DNA from: an uncultured Gammaproteobacteria bacterium
Lineage (GTDB): Bacteria > Patescibacteriota > Microgenomatia > UBA12405
Reading direction: 5' to 3'
DNA: 45,642 nucleotides
Assembly: GCA_964544275.1 (NCBI GenBank)
Contig: CAZIZX010000001.1
Span: 1 to 45,642, forward strand
Shown: positions 13,497 through 33,233 of the stretch, piece after piece
How positions within the stretch are numbered: position 1 is the stretch's first letter
Layout of the letters: each line of letters starts with the position of its first letter
Made by a program: the position numbers and the translations under genes
Notes under the pieces: generated by a model
Seen by the model: the letters and a program-made list of their open reading frames with translations, nothing else
Database searches by the model: none
Told to the model about the DNA's origin: nothing

Positions 13497-13841
13497 ATGA
13501 ACAATAGGGGAGTATTTGATTTAATCAGAAATATCGTCCGCCAAATCCCACCAGGAAAGGTGTCTACGTATGGCAATGTCGCTCAGGCAGCCGGAATTGG
13601 AAATGCCCAGGTTGTTGGCTGGGCCCTGCGAGGCAACCAGAATAAAGACATCCCTTGTCACCGGGTTATTCAAAAAGGCGGCACCCTATCTTCCGGCTTT
13701 TCACTTAATGGTCCCAAGGAACAAAAAAAGCGTTTACTTAATGATGGCGTACCGTTTTTAGACGAGACCAGAGTTGACATGGATCAGGCTTTTTTCGACT
13801 TAGCCACTTTGCCCCAATTTTCTCCTGGCTCTGTTAATTAA
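13497..13841 (+). CDS. O6-methylguanine-DNA methyltransferase family protein (single domain, PCHRV)
   Basis: IPPGKVSTYGNVA, AQVVGWAL, IPCHRVI. Confidence 0.92.
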   Translation: MNNRGVFDLIRNIVRQIPPGKVSTYGNVAQAAGIGNAQVVGWALRGNQNKDIPCHRVIQKGGTLSSGFSLNGPKEQKKRLLNDGVPFLDETRVDMDQAFFDLATLPQFSPGSVN

Positions 13842-16307
13842 AAATAGTAAAGCTAGTAATCCGGGAAGTAGGTATAAATAATTTCTATCTCTTATATTCA
13901 TTGCCGGACTTGTATCTCCAAGAACCCCTTCCAAGTTTTCTTCATTTATTGCCGCCGACACTACTCCCGGCCCTAACAAATTGCCCGCCAAGCCTCTAAA
14001 TAACACCACAAACTCCGTGATTGCATTATCACTGCTCATTTCGTCTCCCTCATCTGTTTTGCCAATAACCCGGCTTTTGGAAAAATAATTAGTCGATTTT
14101 TGAATAGACACCCCCATTTCTATCCCGAAACTGACCGTCCCACTCTTCCTGGCTTTAATTTTTCCGATTCGTACCTCATCTGCTACCCACAAATTACCTT
14201 TCTCGTCAAATATTTCGTGTACTAAAACCGCCTCCGACAAATCACCGTCGCCAACATTTTCGATTACTATTTCAAATGTTACGGTATCATTGGGGAACAC
14301 ATAGCCATTAACATTGTTTTTGGCTGTTATCTTAATTTCCGGTTTATTATGATTCTTTTCACCATCCTCACTCCCACTATCCCCACCGACATTACCCGAA
14401 TTGTCAAAAAGCTTATAAATAATTATTTTTGTCTGAGTCGAGCTGCTATTGTTGAGTAAATTCGATTCAATCTGATTTGTATTGACACTGGCTCTCATTA
14501 TTGATTCAATTTCTTCGTAATCCTCTGCCGCCCAGGCCGTTTTGACCAATTTCCAGCCCGAAACCGTAGCCGTCGGCTTATTTTTTAATGCTCTCAATTT
14601 TATCTGGAACGATCCTCCTTTTCTGGCTCCGATATGGCCAATGTTCCACCTAACTTTATTTCCATCAATTCCACTTCCAATTCCACTATTGTCACCCAGG
14701 TATTCCACGCTGTCATCCAAGTTTACTTCTACCGTAGCATCAAACACATCTTCATAACCCTCATTCTTTACCACCAAAGTATAAAAAAACTCTTCGCCCA
14801 CCTCAACACTATCTTTTTCTTGCAAGACATCAATACTTAAATCTGGATAGGCAAAAATGGCATTGCCGTTCCAATTACCGACAATATTTATAATTCCATA
14901 AAACCAATTACTGCCCCAAAAATTTGTATTGACAATGTTTAATAAATTAACCAAAGCTATCGCATTTCCGGTAATAATCCCAGCCGAACCTGAGTTGTTA
15001 TTTATGTTATTATTTCCACTATCGGCTTGAGCTACAATATTATTGTTTACTACCGCATTATTTTCCAGGTCAACCACAGCAAAGAAATTTGGCCCGCTTC
15101 CGCCTACCCCTCCTCCGATTGAAAACGTGGTTACGCTACCACCTGTTTCCACCGATCCCGGTTCACTCCAATTATAAATATTGCCATTCCAGGCACCCAA
15201 AGTGTTGATGGTTAGCAAAAACAAATCACTCGAACCATTTATATTTATCCAATTATTGTTGTTTGATGATGAAACGGCGTCTCCACTTGTTAGATTAGAT
15301 TCTCCGCCTCCCAAAATATTGTTAAAACCGCTATTTGATTGAGCTTGGATCGAATTATTCACCAAAGCCCCATTCTCATTAAATACTAACCCGCCAACCT
15401 GTGAGTTATTTCCATTCTGAAACATAGTTGGTGAAGGCAAAATTATGTCTCCCAAAGTCGAACCGTCAACATTGATAACCGTTATCAAAAAATTACTGCC
15501 GATTAAGGTGGTGTTGACCAGGTTGATCACGTTGGCCAAGGCTATCGCGTTACCGCTGACAATCAATACGTCTCCGACGTTTTCATCAACTGAGTTATTT
15601 CCGCTGTTTGCAATTACCGTAGCATTGTTATTGACCTCAGCTTCATTTTTTTGACTAATCACAATAAAATTCGAATACTCTGTTGGGTTATATGCTACTT
15701 CAACTCCACTTGAATCCCCGCTTAACACTTCACCCCAAATATCTTTCAAATTAATATCAGCCACGTCTCCGCTGAAATTATTGAGTAAAAATATTTTTAA
15801 ATTACTATTGACTAGATTGGAATTTATCAAATTGACCAAATTAGCATAAGATACAGCCTCACCGGTATCAATTACTGCTTTACTGCCACTATCGGCCTGA
15901 TCAATTTGATTGTTTCCAGTTACTGACTCCGAATAACTATCATTATTTATGGTAGCTTCGTTTGTCGGTTCCTCTTCGCTCTCAGTTTCTTCACCACCTT
16001 TTTCTTGTAATTGTTCCACAGTTCCTAACTTTTCCAACGTATTGTCTTCAACCGCAACTCCTTCTAAAACGTTCTCCTCAGCAGGTTCTTTATCGATAAT
16101 TTCGTCTTCGGTTATAACTAGTTCTTCTTGTTCCAATTCTTCAAGTTCAGGCTCAACTTCAGAAGATATTTCTTCGTCTACTACGGCTGTCTCCATCGGT
16201 TCCGCTTCAGCCTCTTGGGCATACACCAAAGCCACCATCGGTTGATTAATCAACAGGCTGATTAATGTAATTCCAATAATAATATTTTTGCTAACTGTGT
16301 TTTTCAT
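13800..16307 (-). CDS. large secreted Asn/Gly-repeat surface protein with two DUF11-like Ig domains and a C-terminal TM anchor
   Basis: Signal peptide (..VYAQE); acidic linker; four N.A.(V/I).N...(A/S).(S/T)G.N...I.(T/S)G.A....N..N repeats; YPDLSI..VEVGEEFFYTLVVKNEG (DUF11-like); VLGD + TM + RARRK. Confidence 0.75.
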   Translation of the reverse strand: MKNTVSKNIIIGITLISLLINQPMVALVYAQEAEAEPMETAVVDEEISSEVEPELEELEQEELVITEDEIIDKEPAEENVLEGVAVEDNTLEKLGTVEQLQEKGGEETESEEEPTNEATINNDSYSESVTGNNQIDQADSGSKAVIDTGEAVSYANLVNLINSNLVNSNLKIFLLNNFSGDVADINLKDIWGEVLSGDSSGVEVAYNPTEYSNFIVISQKNEAEVNNNATVIANSGNNSVDENVGDVLIVSGNAIALANVINLVNTTLIGSNFLITVINVDGSTLGDIILPSPTMFQNGNNSQVGGLVFNENGALVNNSIQAQSNSGFNNILGGGESNLTSGDAVSSSNNNNWININGSSDLFLLTINTLGAWNGNIYNWSEPGSVETGGSVTTFSIGGGVGGSGPNFFAVVDLENNAVVNNNIVAQADSGNNNINNNSGSAGIITGNAIALVNLLNIVNTNFWGSNWFYGIINIVGNWNGNAIFAYPDLSIDVLQEKDSVEVGEEFFYTLVVKNEGYEDVFDATVEVNLDDSVEYLGDNSGIGSGIDGNKVRWNIGHIGARKGGSFQIKLRALKNKPTATVSGWKLVKTAWAAEDYEEIESIMRASVNTNQIESNLLNNSSSTQTKIIIYKLFDNSGNVGGDSGSEDGEKNHNKPEIKITAKNNVNGYVFPNDTVTFEIVIENVGDGDLSEAVLVHEIFDEKGNLWVADEVRIGKIKARKSGTVSFGIEMGVSIQKSTNYFSKSRVIGKTDEGDEMSSDNAITEFVVLFRGLAGNLLGPGVVSAAINEENLEGVLGDTSPAMNIRDRNYLYLLPGLLALLFLINRARRKLGQSG

Positions 16308-19510: not shown

Positions 19511-20725
19511 ATGTTTACACTCAAAAACCTTTTTTTCCTCCCCGCCATAATTTTTCTATCCTCTTTTCTTCTATCAGCTCACCCGCAGGCTCAATCAGGT
19601 AATTCCGGTCAATGTCAAAATGGGGAAGTCAAAAAAATTGAAAACCCTCCCTTTAACGCTCACACCTCCTGCCTTATTACCAGACTTGGAATAAAAGCCG
19701 GAAGTCAGGCTAGTGGTCATGGTTGTACTTACTATTCGTCAAATACTAATGACGGCTGTTACAAAGTTGAAGGTATCGGCACCAATCAGGCCTCCGCCAG
19801 TCGTGTTGGACACGGTAAATTTTGCCCAGAAATTTCTCATATTAAAGTTTATTGTGACCCGATCAACACTCCCACCCCAACCGTCACCCCAACACCCACC
19901 ACTAAACCTGCCAAACCTCCCACCCCCACTAAAAAACCTCATCCAACTAAAATTCCCAAACCCACTCACACCCCTAAACCCACCAAACCCCCCTGCGCCA
20001 CACCAACTCAGATCTCCACTCCAACCAGTACTCCCACTTCGGTTCCGACTCCCACCTCCACTCAGATACCAACAGTAACCCCCACCCCAACCAATCCACC
20101 AGCTCCTACTTCTACCCCCACCCCCCAGCCTCACTCTGATCCCACCGCCACTCCTACACCTCTACCCACATCTAGCCCCGCACCGGTTGGTGGCTACAAC
20201 CCCACCGTTGTTCAAGTTTTGGGTTCTACCGACAACTACAATCCTTTAATCGACGCCATCAAGAAATCACTTATTGGCCAGGTTTTAGGTGAAAATAATT
20301 TAGCTGGCACCAGTGATCCAAAAGCTTCAAACGAAAAATTACCTTCTTCCAATCTTCTGACCCCAAAAACGATAACAATTCCTCAGATTAATTTTTCTCA
20401 ACCCATATATCAATCAGATCGAATTGGCGACGAATTACTCGTTGGCCACAATGAAGTTTTAGAAGCGGATTTAAATGGACTAAAACTTATTTATGGTCAC
20501 AATAGCCCTCAAGTTTTTGCCAACCTCTATCAGCTAAATTTAGGCCAAAGTATAACCATAGATACAGGAGATCTGACCAGCGAATACCAGATTGTCTCCA
20601 AACACTTTGTTCATGAGTCCAAAAGTAACTTTTTCGAATCTGTTAGTTCCGACAATATCGTTTTGATGACCTGTTCTTATACTCAACCTGATTACCGACA
20701 CATAATAATTGCCAGCAAAATCTAA
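19511..20725 (+). CDS. sortase-domain protein with signal peptide, Cys-rich N-domain and Pro/Thr stalk
   Basis: C-terminal IYGHN..VFANLYQLNLGQSI...YQIV...IVLMTC....YRHII: His/Cys/Arg sortase triad in canonical order. Confidence 0.8.
   Translation: MFTLKNLFFLPAIIFLSSFLLSAHPQAQSGNSGQCQNGEVKKIENPPFNAHTSCLITRLGIKAGSQASGHGCTYYSSNTNDGCYKVEGIGTNQASASRVGHGKFCPEISHIKVYCDPINTPTPTVTPTPTTKPAKPPTPTKKPHPTKIPKPTHTPKPTKPPCATPTQISTPTSTPTSVPTPTSTQIPTVTPTPTNPPAPTSTPTPQPHSDPTATPTPLPTSSPAPVGGYNPTVVQVLGSTDNYNPLIDAIKKSLIGQVLGENNLAGTSDPKASNEKLPSSNLLTPKTITIPQINFSQPIYQSDRIGDELLVGHNEVLEADLNGLKLIYGHNSPQVFANLYQLNLGQSITIDTGDLTSEYQIVSKHFVHESKSNFFESVSSDNIVLMTCSYTQPDYRHIIIASKI
19860..20200 (+). repeat. Pro/Thr-rich low-complexity linker (TPTPT-type repeats)
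   Basis: Translated PINTPTPTVTPTPTTKPAKPPTPTKKP...TPTPLPTSSP; boundaries approximate. Confidence 0.85.
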
Positions 20726-30321: not shown

Positions 30322-30601
30322 CAAAAAAACTCCTTCTTATCTCATATTTATTTCCATATTTACCTTAGTTACCGTGCTTATCATGATTGCTCACAAAAGT
30401 TACGACAACCTTGTCCGGCCTACAGAGGTAGTTATGACGTCGGAGAATGTTAAGCCACTCAATACTACCATTGATCTTAGCGTTCTTGAAGAAATCGAAA
30501 AAAGAGAAGAACTTGTCGTACAAGATTTGAATGTTGGACTACCGGTAACTCCGGATTATTTTGAAGACGCCACCGGTACCCCATCAGCTGAGCCTCAATA
30601 A
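30314..30601 (+). CDS. small bitopic membrane protein in PilP position
   Basis: ATG 30314 coupled to the pilO-like stop; N-terminal TM; LNTTIDLSVLEEIEKR. Confidence 0.55.
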   Translation: MNNKKTPSYLIFISIFTLVTVLIMIAHKSYDNLVRPTEVVMTSENVKPLNTTIDLSVLEEIEKREELVVQDLNVGLPVTPDYFEDATGTPSAEPQ

Positions 30602-30602
30602 A

Positions 30603-31919
30603 ATGCGACAAGAAAAAAGGATACCGACACTTTTGGGCTTGTTTTTTTTAACTTTTGTGATTTTTGCCGGCGTAGTTTTGACCCAGCAGAACATTGGACT
30701 GAATATAAAAGCCAGCCCCACCTGTCAGCCCGTCAACCCTCAAGTCTCCAACATCACCCACACCTCAGCCGATGTTTCTTTCCTCACCGAATCGGTATGC
30801 TCTATCGCTTTAAAAATCGACAACCGCACCATCACTAATTTCAAGGAGAACTCAAAAGTCCACTATTTTCAGGTAAATAATCTAAAAGAATCCACTCAGT
30901 ATACTTACAGTTTTGTCATAAACGCCAAAGAAATTCAAAATGACAATTATCGATTTAAAACAGCTAATCGACCGTCAGGTAAAATGCCCACTTCAAATTT
31001 AGCCTGGGGGAAGGTTTATACTGCCGGATACAATCCTGCCGCCGATGCTGTTGTCTATTTAAACATTCCTGGCGCATCCCCACTTTCTTCCCTGGTAACC
31101 TCAAATGGTTATTGGAATATCTCGCTTGCTACCAGTTTCAACATGGACAAAAATTCCTGGTTCACCCCCCCCGACAATGTCGAAGAAGAAATCATAGTTT
31201 TATTTCCCGGTTTCTCACCCACTCAAATCACCAGCAACACCTCAAAAAACAACCCGGTCCCCGATATAATTATTGGCCAAAATTCCTTCTCCAAAATCCA
31301 AATCGATGAATTGGCTTCGGGCATTCTGCTGCCGGAAAGTGGTGGAATACCAAGCATACAACTCGATGTTCTCAATCCTAAGGATAATGAATCAATCAAT
31401 ACCCAAAAACCCGATATTTTTGGTAGCGCCCCCCCCGGCTCTGAGTTGGATATCTTAATTGAGTCACCCCAAAGCTACAACGGCAAAACAACCGCTTCTA
31501 CCAACGGCTCTTGGAACTGGTCTCCACCGGCAAATCTGGAACCGGGAGAACACACCATTACGGTCACCGCTACCGATCCCAAAACGGGCGCCATTCAAAC
31601 TATAAAAAGAAAATTTATTGTCATGGCTGCCGAAGACAACACCCTTGCCTTTACTGCTTCTGGTTCTGCCGTACAACCCAGTCCGACCCCGACGCTTAAA
31701 CCCAGCCCAACCACAGCGGTAGCTACTCCCATCCCCACTTCCGTTCCGACGACCAAGATCAACACTCCCACTTCAATCCCGGTAACCAAAACGGAAAGCC
31801 CAAGTACGGATTCAGGTATACCAGTTGCTGGTACCACCCTTCCCACACTGGCTTTAATTTTATTTGCTTCTTGCCTTCTAGGACTAGCTCATACCATATC
31901 AAAAAAATCAGGTATTTAA
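30603..31919 (+). CDS. surface protein: N-terminal TM, FN3-like, Ig-like (Big) domains, Pro/Thr stalk, IPVAG + TM C-terminus
   Basis: PQVSNITHTSADVSF...VHYFQVNNLKESTQYTY (FN3); SNGSWNWSPPANLEPGEHTITVTATD (Big-like); GIPVAGTT-hydrophobic-KK. Confidence 0.8.
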   Translation: MRQEKRIPTLLGLFFLTFVIFAGVVLTQQNIGLNIKASPTCQPVNPQVSNITHTSADVSFLTESVCSIALKIDNRTITNFKENSKVHYFQVNNLKESTQYTYSFVINAKEIQNDNYRFKTANRPSGKMPTSNLAWGKVYTAGYNPAADAVVYLNIPGASPLSSLVTSNGYWNISLATSFNMDKNSWFTPPDNVEEEIIVLFPGFSPTQITSNTSKNNPVPDIIIGQNSFSKIQIDELASGILLPESGGIPSIQLDVLNPKDNESINTQKPDIFGSAPPGSELDILIESPQSYNGKTTASTNGSWNWSPPANLEPGEHTITVTATDPKTGAIQTIKRKFIVMAAEDNTLAFTASGSAVQPSPTPTLKPSPTTAVATPIPTSVPTTKINTPTSIPVTKTESPSTDSGIPVAGTTLPTLALILFASCLLGLAHTISKKSGI

Positions 31920-31952
31920 TTCCTCCACATTTTCCTCTAAACTAACAATAGA

Positions 31953-33233
31953 ATGTTTGTTAAGAAATATCTTTACGCCTTTTTAACCATTGTTTTTATT
32001 TCACTATCTCTAGTTGGAACCCTATATCTAGTCCAAAGAAATCAGGACATTCGCGATCATGCTGCCGGGGAAAACCAGTTGGTTTGCATGCCAATTGATG
32101 ATAGCGGCAACATAACTGCTGAAAAGTATCGATATAATCGAATAAAAGTTACCAACAACACCGGTGGTAATGTAATTATCTGGATCCAGGAAAACCTATG
32201 TGATTACAAAGGGACCATGCCTTCCGCCGGATATCGTTGCGATAATTACCACCGTCGTTACAACGATACTGTCGGCCCCGGTCAATCAAAAATTTACTCT
32301 ATGGATGTTCCTTGCGGGAAAATTGGTCAACTTGATATTGCCCAGGACGATGCCCAAATGGGCACTTATGTTCCGGATTGTTACAACACCACCGATCAAC
32401 AAATTTGGAGCGGAGGCATATCTTTCACCATCAAAGCCGATACCCGCACCAACTGTTGCCCTCAGGTAAACTTAAGTGTCCTCCCCTCTCAAGTGTCACC
32501 CGGAGGCAAAGTGACTTTTGATGCCTCCAGTTCACAACCCCTTGTTTGTGTCGAAATGCAATCAGTAAACGGAACCACCGGCAGTCTCTCTCCGACTAGG
32601 ATAGAAGGAGGTCATTGGAAATGGGACGCCACCGCCATATCTACTCCCGGGAAATATACGGTCACCTTTAGAGGCAACACAAAAGACAGTGGAGTTGGCG
32701 ACTGCCCCAGTCGGGCCATCGGCGATTGGTGCCCCGCCCAGGCGACTTTTGACATTCAACCTGCCACTACCAACACCCCCACCCCTACCGCCACCAAAAC
32801 TCCAACTCCGACAGCCACTAAAACTCCGACTCCCACTGCTACCAAGACACCGACCCCAACTGCCACTCGGGTTCCCACCAACACCCCCAGTCCCACCGCC
32901 ACCAACACTCCACCCCCCGGAGCTACTCTCACATCCACCCCCATCGCCACCAACACCCTCACCCCTACCGCTACTAACACTCCAGCCCCTACTAATACTC
33001 CACCTCCCGGAGCCACCTTAACTCCCACTCCTCTGGCTACCAATACTCCAGTACCCACTCCTGTCATCGCCGAAAGCACGCCCGTTCCTCCTACAGGTAC
33101 TCCAGTTTACGTTGCCCAAGTGCCAAGCCCGACCACGGTTATTTTGCCCCAAGCCGGAGTTAATTTCCCTCTTCAGTTATTAGCTGTTGTTGGTACAATT
33201 ATCACCCTTTTTGGGTTTTTGATATTATTGTAA
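31953..33233 (+). CDS. surface protein: N-terminal TM, Cys-rich domain, Pro/Thr stalk, LPQAG + TM C-terminus
   Basis: VQRNQDIRDHAAG after TM; many Cys; tandem TPTPTATK; ILPQAGVNFPLQLLAVVGTIITLFGFLILL. Confidence 0.8.
   Translation: MFVKKYLYAFLTIVFISLSLVGTLYLVQRNQDIRDHAAGENQLVCMPIDDSGNITAEKYRYNRIKVTNNTGGNVIIWIQENLCDYKGTMPSAGYRCDNYHRRYNDTVGPGQSKIYSMDVPCGKIGQLDIAQDDAQMGTYVPDCYNTTDQQIWSGGISFTIKADTRTNCCPQVNLSVLPSQVSPGGKVTFDASSSQPLVCVEMQSVNGTTGSLSPTRIEGGHWKWDATAISTPGKYTVTFRGNTKDSGVGDCPSRAIGDWCPAQATFDIQPATTNTPTPTATKTPTPTATKTPTPTATKTPTPTATRVPTNTPSPTATNTPPPGATLTSTPIATNTLTPTATNTPAPTNTPPPGATLTPTPLATNTPVPTPVIAESTPVPPTGTPVYVAQVPSPTTVILPQAGVNFPLQLLAVVGTIITLFGFLILL
32770..33060 (+). repeat. tandem Pro/Thr repeats (TPTPTATK-type x3-4; TNTPPPGATLT(S/P)TP(I/L)ATNT x2)
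   Basis: Seen directly in the translation; the DNA is synonymously diverged; boundaries approximate. Confidence 0.85.

Follow-up and report, generated by a model that had tools for sequence, protein, structure and literature searches.

In the textbook view, sortases are anchored in the membrane and act on substrates encoded by other genes, which are retained by a transmembrane (TM) helix and a basic tail. In Actinobacteria, class E/F sortases exist in gene pairs with their substrates. Engineered self-cleaving sortase fusions have been described (PMC9985607, PMC2901362). The engineered X-LPXTG-linker-SrtA autocyclases form the thioester intramolecularly and then cyclize, polymerize or hydrolyze, and their tether comprises linkers of 7 to 19 aa plus about 14 disordered SrtA residues (PMC9985607). 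In class C sortases, a lid loop fills the groove as a pseudo-substrate. The Pro of its DP[YWF] motif overlaps the Pro of LPAT, and the distance from the lid Asp to the catalytic His is 72 to 73 residues in SrtC1 and SrtC2 of group B Streptococcus (GBS) (PMC3493515). Searches of open-access literature found no natural substrate-sortase fusion; they returned only the class C lid and self-cleaving fusions made by engineering. Here, we describe a gene (positions 19511 to 20725) on a stretch of 45,642 nucleotides (contig CAZIZX010000001.1, forward strand), hereafter called the window. Its product is predicted to be a fusion of a surface substrate with its own sortase.

The functionally closest system appears to be the engineered autocyclase. 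The window protein has an autocyclase-type layout, with the order cargo, LPXTG-type motif, short linker and TM-less sortase in one chain, and its tether of ~20 residues is comparable to that of the autocyclases. Unlike the autocyclases, which are laboratory constructs of Staphylococcus aureus SrtA, the layout in the window is natural and is conserved in about 57 protein clusters. The linker of this family also differs in having a structured helix and a KLPSGN element, and a dedicated membrane partner gene accompanies the sortase.

A sorting-signal-like motif precedes the sortase domain

The initial annotation, made from the DNA sequence alone, described the gene product as a sortase carried on a stalk. 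Analysis of the C-terminal domain bore out the enzyme family. The domain matched the PF04203 hidden Markov model (HMM) over aa 288 to 402 (model positions 1 to 123 of 125) with 46.5 bits against a gathering cutoff of 26.6, and a sequence search of the PDB matched sortases, e.g., 2w1k and 2kw8. In two AlphaFold2 (AF2) models, the blocks of this domain reached a predicted local distance difference test (pLDDT) of ~76 to 98 (88 to 98 with 58 sequences). Comparison with the PDB by Foldseek returned solved sortases throughout the top 50 matches with a probability of 1.00, including class C, A and E enzymes, with a core root mean square deviation of 3.5 to 4.3 Å over 133 to 149 alignment columns. 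The models have the eight-stranded beta-barrel of the sortase fold. The catalytic residues are located where they had been annotated: GHN begins at nt 20495, with His330 (in YGHN) at 20498 to 20500, Cys388 (in LMTCS, of the TLxTC type) at 20672 to 20674 and Arg396 at 20696 to 20698. All three residues are invariant across 58 aligned relatives. The agreement of the HMM, the fold and the triad places the window protein in the sortase superfamily (PF04203/MEROPS C60), and transpeptidase activity on a sorting motif is predicted. The competing possibility of a YkuD or other fold was rejected, as there was no YkuD Pfam hit at an E value of ≤1 and the 50 best fold matches were all sortases.

The search with PF04203 suggested by the initial annotation was thus positive, but the class assignment suggested along with it failed. 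The NCBIfam models of class C (26.1 bits versus a cutoff of 160), class GN (23.9 versus 158), class D (20.3 versus 165) and class F (11.9 versus 166) all remained far under their cutoffs, and the general model TIGR01076 reached 33.7 bits versus 39.35. Membership of classes A to F or GN was therefore rejected, and the protein belongs to no defined class.

The C-terminal ~195 residues of 13 and later of 58 relatives were aligned. The alignments revealed a conserved pre-sortase module between the Pro/Thr-rich (PT) stalk and the catalytic barrel. In this module, VLG is followed by three residues, the predicted helix NYNPLV[DE]GI, one residue, G-x-VLG, three to four residues and a pentapeptide motif. 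Downstream of the motif lie about eight variable, often acidic residues, KLPS[GS]N, about seven residues and IxIP, which forms strand beta1. In the window protein, the corresponding positions are VLG 236 to 238, N244-P245 with the helix (245 to 253), VLG 258 to 260 and KLPSSN 276 to 281. The motif is LAGTS, an LPXTG-type pentapeptide as in cell wall sorting signals, and it sits ~20 residues ahead of strand beta1. The hydrophobic helix and basic tail that complete such a signal are absent from the window protein; the ~20-residue linker and the sortase domain follow instead.

The consensus of the motif in 57 family members is L-[P/A/M]-x-T-[G/A/S]. Position 1 is Leu in 43 of the 57, and position 2 is Pro in 29, Ala in 14 and Met in 7. 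Thr occupies position 4 in 55 members, and position 5 is Gly in 25, Ala in 24 and Ser in 6. The distance from the motif Thr to the catalytic His is 63 to 64 residues in 44 members. The column conservation in the MAFFT alignment amounts to 76% for the Leu and 93% (3.85 bits) for T267, with 0.88 bits at position x and 0.6 to 1.5 bits per column in the weakly conserved spacer after the motif. Across this region the relatives are only 27 to 58% identical to the window protein. This pattern reads as the signature of a sortase recognition pentapeptide rather than that of a linker. In a MAFFT alignment, the motif embedded in the fusions shares its columns with the LAxTG/MPxTG motif of TM-anchored substrate-type proteins. 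Two family members, P0141 and P0143, embed LPNAG and LPDAG.

AF2 modeling of aa 225 to 404 with 58 sequences gave a mean pLDDT of 85.9. In blocks of 10 residues, the helix N244 to S253 reached ~80 and the block holding KLPSSN reached 88, and both are modeled as ordered parts of the domain. The blocks GQVLGENNL and AGTSDPKASN reached 59 and 65, respectively, and aa 198 to 276 stayed under 50 in the full-length model (22 sequences). The models are neutral with respect to binding of the motif in cis and speak neither for nor against it.

The cargo domain also occurs beside separate sortases

The N-terminal part of the window protein consists of a signal-peptide-like segment and a Cys-rich domain, which is carried on the PT stalk. 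A local HMM of the Cys-rich domain, built from 10 relatives, matched 24 of ~200 fetched proteins. The sortase module forms the C terminus of about ten of these 24. Among the remainder, most terminate with GQVLGAS..[LM][AP]xTG, a hydrophobic helix and then a basic tail (P0013, P0016 to P0018, P0020 to P0023, P0026, P0027 and P0032). Comparison of the fusion P0003 (VLGVTTLARTGNSPLAY) with the substrate-type protein P0013 (VLGASTMAQTGSSPLTY) revealed that the two are close up to the point where the TM helix begins; P0003 retains LARTGNSPLAY, near MAQTGSSPLTY of P0013. The N-terminal layout is likewise shared. The signal-like segment of the window protein ends with the small-x-small site A27-Q28-S29/G30 (slash, predicted cleavage point), and substrate-type proteins with the Cys-rich domain have LYA/QG, ISA/GQ and LAA/GG. 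Cleavage of the signal peptide is predicted for the window protein.

A separate sortase gene directly adjoins the stand-alone cargo gene in all five contexts checked. It lies downstream with an overlap of ~20 nt for P0018, P0013 and P0026 and directly upstream for P0027 and P0016. The four adjacent sortases that were readable (all but the one on the P0013 contig) are anchored conventionally by an N-terminal TM segment and are devoid of the pre-sortase module. The adjacent sortase is of the MTCWP type in two contexts of the five (L018 and L020). The cargo of the window protein thus exists elsewhere as a dedicated substrate-type neighbor of a separate sortase. These pairs, from loci L016 to L020 of the candidate phyla radiation (CPR), resemble the window protein in the Cys-rich cargo domain, the PT stalk, the VLG..LAxTG element and the one-to-one linkage. 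They differ in comprising two proteins, a substrate with a C-terminal TM helix and basic tail and a sortase with an N-terminal TM segment, whereas the window protein is one chain with neither TM segment. The occurrence of the same cargo with a TM helix and basic tail beside a separate sortase points to the window protein as a substrate-sortase fusion from which both TM segments have gone.

A joint loss of the TM segments is a plausible evolutionary route, as read-through of a substrate TM and a sortase TM would give a topologically neutral hairpin. The 3' end of the substrate-type gene overlaps the sortase start by ~20 to 23 nt on three independent contigs (loci listed with an overlap: L016 6001 to 7219, L017, L019 4001 to 5444 and the P0013 contig). 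Such tight coupling could favor fusion by small indels. A recent read-through of adjacent genes was rejected as the origin of the window protein: no pre-sortase module is present in the adjacent sortases, whose identity to the window domain does not exceed ~31% and extends over only ~80 residues, so the fusion is not recent.

Two further observations were made among these proteins. At L020, a YkuD L,D-transpeptidase gene (1832 to 2308) lies directly beside the pair of sortase and Cys-rich substrate. P0015 and P0019 (579 to 594 aa) combine the Cys-rich domain with a very long PT stalk and a different C-terminal domain with the pattern HN...YTCPP...RR. A second, independent sortase fusion was considered here and rejected, as PF04203 did not match the domain. 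It could be sortase-like but very divergent, or of another kind.

Variable passengers are joined to a constant C-terminal module

An exhaustive phmmer search with aa 230 to 404 against 1.84 billion representatives revealed 57 proteins at an E value of ≤1e-10 and 18 at ≤1e-30 (cluster representatives). Word-indexed searches had returned five proteins with the sortase region and one with the Cys-rich domain. In nearly all 57, the match begins in the pre-sortase module and the sortase ends a few residues from the C terminus. At ≤1e-10, total lengths span 111 to 626 aa; the lowest values belong to fragments, and the shortest complete members have ~188 aa. The layout is a genuine architecture and not an assembly artifact, because it recurs in these 57 cluster representatives, the listed matches ending in the sortase domain.

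Complete members start with a signal-peptide-like segment. The passengers vary and comprise the Cys-rich domain, FN3 located behind other Cys-rich modules, or other domains. In a tree of the catalytic domain, the passenger types are scattered. Four passenger-less members (P0119, P0143 and P0154/P0156) stand beside or among passenger-bearing ones, which requires three changes, and P0119 falls inside the FN3 clade. Because the passengers differ and scatter on the tree while the C-terminal part is constant, the typical member is a variable cargo joined to a constant motif-plus-sortase module.

Related loci were collected with a 14-sequence alignment. The named homologs and most of the related loci are labeled Candidatus Shapirobacteria, Microgenomates or Patescibacteria, and the Cys-rich domain was encountered in this analysis only among CPR-type proteins. 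The window is likewise assigned to an ultra-small CPR bacterium of the Shapirobacteria type. One locus, L006 (CAYUZS010000001.1), is labeled "uncultured Gammaproteobacteria bacterium" and has an FN3-sortase and partner locus of the Shapirobacteria type, with a sortase domain 45% identical to the window domain; this bin is probably mislabeled. In the window itself, the GC skew is negative in all 2-kb windows of positions 1 to 45642 (-0.09 to -0.32), independent of gene strand. A similar G/C strand disparity, spanning the whole chromosome, has been reported for UBA1400-type Microgenomates (PMC7143001).

A putative membrane partner is encoded directly downstream

The ATG of the next gene directly abuts the stop codon of the sortase gene (TAAATG). 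In each of the 12 family loci with DNA downstream of the sortase gene, a homolog of this partner gene follows after ~0 to 15 nt; none was found in the fetched stretches of L014 to L020, the loci with other sortase types. The partner homologs are 26 to 35% identical (BLASTP). The domain weakly matches DcrB, LpqN and PsbP; DcrB matched three of four members tested (best E value, 3e-6), as did LpqN, and a search of the partner profile against the PDB gave nothing significant. Few residues are invariant across the 12 partners, namely, the Trp in P.GW, one Lys (K62 in the window protein), Pro, Tyr, Gly, Gln and Ser. The invariant Lys could serve as an acceptor amine. Because the sortase domain has no TM segment of its own, the partner is a candidate for holding it at the membrane.

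The pre-sortase module with its motif and this membrane-anchored partner gene are the two features that the initial annotation overlooked. New in the present analysis are also the adjacency of stand-alone cargo genes to separate sortases (5/5), the partner linkage (12/12), the tree positions of the passenger-less forms, which stand next to or within groups of passenger-bearing members, and the statistics of motif and spacing.

Feature layout and other surface proteins of the window

The coordinates of the features are compiled in Table 1. The signal-like segment, the Cys-rich pattern, the PT stalk and the C-terminal sortase are all present as first annotated.

Table 1. Features of the sortase gene and its partner in the window (all on the + strand)
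Feature	Residues	Nucleotides	Strand	Remarks
Single open reading frame	404 aa	19511..20725	+	ATG start, TAA stop
Signal-peptide-like N-terminal segment	aa 1-29	19511..19597	+	Single Lys, 18-residue hydrophobic core
Cys-rich beta domain	aa 30-116	19598..19858	+	Cys35, 54, 72, 83, 105, 115
Pro/Thr-rich stalk	aa 117-226	19859..20188	+	110 aa; 34% P, 30% T
Conserved pre-sortase module	aa 227-281	20189..20353	+	Alignments of 13 and 58 relatives, per-column conservation
Sorting-signal-like motif	L264-A-G-T267-S268	20300..20314	+	Predicted scissile bond between T267 and S268
Sortase catalytic domain	aa 282-404	20354..20722	+	PF04203, fold, His/Cys/Arg
Partner gene	178 aa	20726..21262	+	N-terminal TM helix and ~130-aa DcrB/LpqN/PsbP-like domain

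Hydrophobicity is restricted to aa 1 to 25, where the Kyte-Doolittle mean over 19 residues reaches up to 1.79; in the rest of the protein, the maximum is 0.64. The hydrophobicity scan thus revealed no TM segment besides the N-terminal signal-like one, and none at the C terminus, where the chain terminates 8 residues past Arg396. The pattern IKAG...C...DGCY.V.G.G...C..ISH is located within aa ~30 to 116. In the full-length AF2 model, the 10-residue blocks of the Cys-rich domain reach a pLDDT of 72 to 94, with strands at 41 to 116, and those of the PT stalk mostly lie under 50 (range, 32 to 61). The Cys-rich domain matched no Pfam family (E value of ≤1) and no NCBIfam family, and a viral fold comparison gave no match. 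The Foldseek list of PDB matches was taken up by sortases.

PT stalks are common among the surface proteins encoded in the window. Tandem PT-stalked proteins at 30561 to 31919 and 31953 to 33233 end in IPVAG, a TM helix and KK and in LPQAG and a TM helix, respectively. Motif position 4 is Ala in both, unlike the Thr of the sortase-embedded LAGTS, and neither is recognized by the NCBIfam LPXTG-anchor model. The C terminus of an 835-aa DUF11-repeat surface protein (13800 to 16307, - strand) consists of EGVLGDTSPAMN.., a TM helix and RARRK. This protein has the VLG element found ahead of LPXTG-type motifs in this clade but no recognizable xTG pentapeptide.

Proposed self-sorting and its alternatives

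We consider it about an even chance (probability of roughly 0.5) that the window protein is a natural substrate-sortase fusion that cleaves itself in cis, or is cleaved by a neighboring copy, and transfers its stalked domain to an amine of the wall. The protein would be exported by Sec, and its signal peptide would be removed. The TM-anchored DcrB/LpqN-like partner, as its gene linkage suggests, would tether the TM-less sortase domain at the membrane. L264-A-G-T267/S268 would then loop into the catalytic groove, either in cis or in a neighboring copy of the protein, and Cys388 would attack the Thr267 carbonyl to give a thioacyl intermediate with the N-terminal part. An amine, most likely that of lipid II or of a peptidoglycan cross-bridge, would resolve this intermediate, so that the Cys-rich domain on its 110-aa PT stalk would be joined covalently to the wall. 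Once freed, the sortase domain, starting from Ser268, may proceed to act in trans. Removal of the signal peptide, docking and cleavage of the motif, the acceptor and the role of the partner are all inferred. With an intact Cys/His/Arg triad and a tether of this length, the sortase is expected to bind, and most likely to cleave, a true L-[P/A]-x-T-[G/A/S] motif.

A rather unlikely variant of this proposal is a portable, membrane-independent auto-sortase cassette. Each exported molecule would charge its own Cys388 with any part that precedes its embedded motif and would deliver this cargo to a dedicated protein acceptor instead of lipid II. One candidate acceptor is the invariant Lys of the DcrB/LpqN-like partner, which would yield a covalent, membrane-tethered stalk. 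Another candidate is the Gly-rich new N terminus of the next copy, which would lead to head-to-tail polymers comparable to "tandem autocyclases". The predicted mature N termini of the Cys-rich-domain proteins P0016, P0017, P0013 and P0001 are Gly-rich (GGDC.., GQGNC.. and GNSGQC..); because an N-terminal oligo-Gly is the classical sortase nucleophile, head-to-tail ligation is conceivable. An amine on the host cell surface of the presumed episymbiont is a third candidate.

Several findings weigh against self-sorting. Position 5 of the motif is Ser in the window protein and Ala in 24 of 57 members, not the classical Gly. The passenger-less P0119 and P0143 retain the motif with no cargo to anchor, and in passenger-less members a regulatory or pro-peptide role of the motif would fit at least as well. 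AF2 did not dock the motif confidently (blocks of 59 to 65; under 50 in the full-length model). The NCBIfam LPXTG-anchor model TIGR01167 remained under its cutoff on the substrate-type tails of CPR proteins, and the sorting-signal status of these tails rests on their tripartite layout and their adjacency to sortase genes.

The retention of the motif in passenger-less members also fits a different role, in which the LPXTG-like loop, preceded by a helix, stays uncleaved and sits in the active site as a pseudo-substrate lid. Such a loop would gate a sortase that acts in trans, e.g., on the IPVAG/LPQAG proteins at 30561 to 33233, and the passenger and stalk would decorate or position the enzyme. 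Class C pilus sortases (GBS SrtC1/SrtC2 and Streptococcus pneumoniae SrtC) resemble the window protein in having N-terminal helices and then a lid loop directly before the beta-barrel (PMC3493515), at a similar distance from the catalytic His (63 to 64 residues from the motif Thr here versus 72 to 73 in the GBS lid). Class C also gave the best, though weak, class-level sequence match and the top Foldseek matches, and the helix (block pLDDT of ~80) and KLPSSN (88) are modeled as ordered domain parts. However, the window loop is a true L-[P/A]-x-T-[G/A] motif with the near-invariant Thr that sortases acylate and not a mimic of the DPW type, and its cleavage would be expected from an enzyme whose Cys/His/Arg triad is intact. 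The class C hallmarks that were looked for, the DP[WYF] lid and a C-terminal TM segment, are both absent from the window protein, which scored 26 versus 160 bits with the class C model and, unlike class C enzymes, carries a long passenger and PT stalk upstream. Moreover, its N-terminal part has homologs that are complete proteins of the substrate type, encoded beside their own sortases. We regard a lid as possible but distinctly less probable than self-sorting.

Cleavage of the embedded motif by another sortase of the genome, which would anchor the passenger, is unlikely. The partner-bound C-terminal sortase would here take over the retention otherwise provided by a TM helix and basic tail, after which it would be shed or serve as a second enzyme. 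The MTCWP type of the adjacent sortase in two of the five substrate-type contexts and the strict linkage of a TM-anchored partner to the fused sortase are consistent with this. However, a fixed spacing between motif and barrel is not needed for cleavage in trans, and the triad and the core of the fused domain are invariant across the 58 relatives, which argues that the domain is selected as an enzyme and not merely as a docking module.

The initial annotation had read the protein as a plain stalked sortase, either released or projected from the membrane, that acts at the outer wall face or on the host surface. The passenger on its PT stalk was confirmed, but this reading overlooks the LAGTS motif (aa 264 to 268), which would then be functionless. 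The 18-residue N-terminal hydrophobic core could remain uncleaved and anchor the protein, and PT stalks are a common element of surface proteins in the window. A functionless motif would not, however, hold 93% Thr, an LPxT[GA] pattern and a fixed spacing among relatives of 27 to 58% identity, and the passenger behaves as exchangeable cargo. The passenger is more likely the cargo and own substrate of the enzyme than a carrier that projects it outward, because the same passenger, stalk and motif elsewhere end like a sorting signal beside a separate sortase gene. Of the explanations weighed, a plain stalked sortase seems the least probable, and quite improbable.

Implications

If self-sorting is correct, the window protein would correspond in nature to the autocyclases and self-cleaving sortase tags of protein engineering. 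The family would also be a possible source of compact sortases that are pre-tuned for an intramolecular reaction and accept LAxT-S/A/G. For the organisms themselves, it would represent a new way to attach surface proteins, in which cargo, motif and TM-less sortase are united in one chain and assisted by a membrane partner. Surface proteins of CPR/Patescibacteria are thought to mediate host-cell attachment. In the poorly understood envelope of these bacteria, such a self-sorting protein would be a monoderm analog of the autotransporters.

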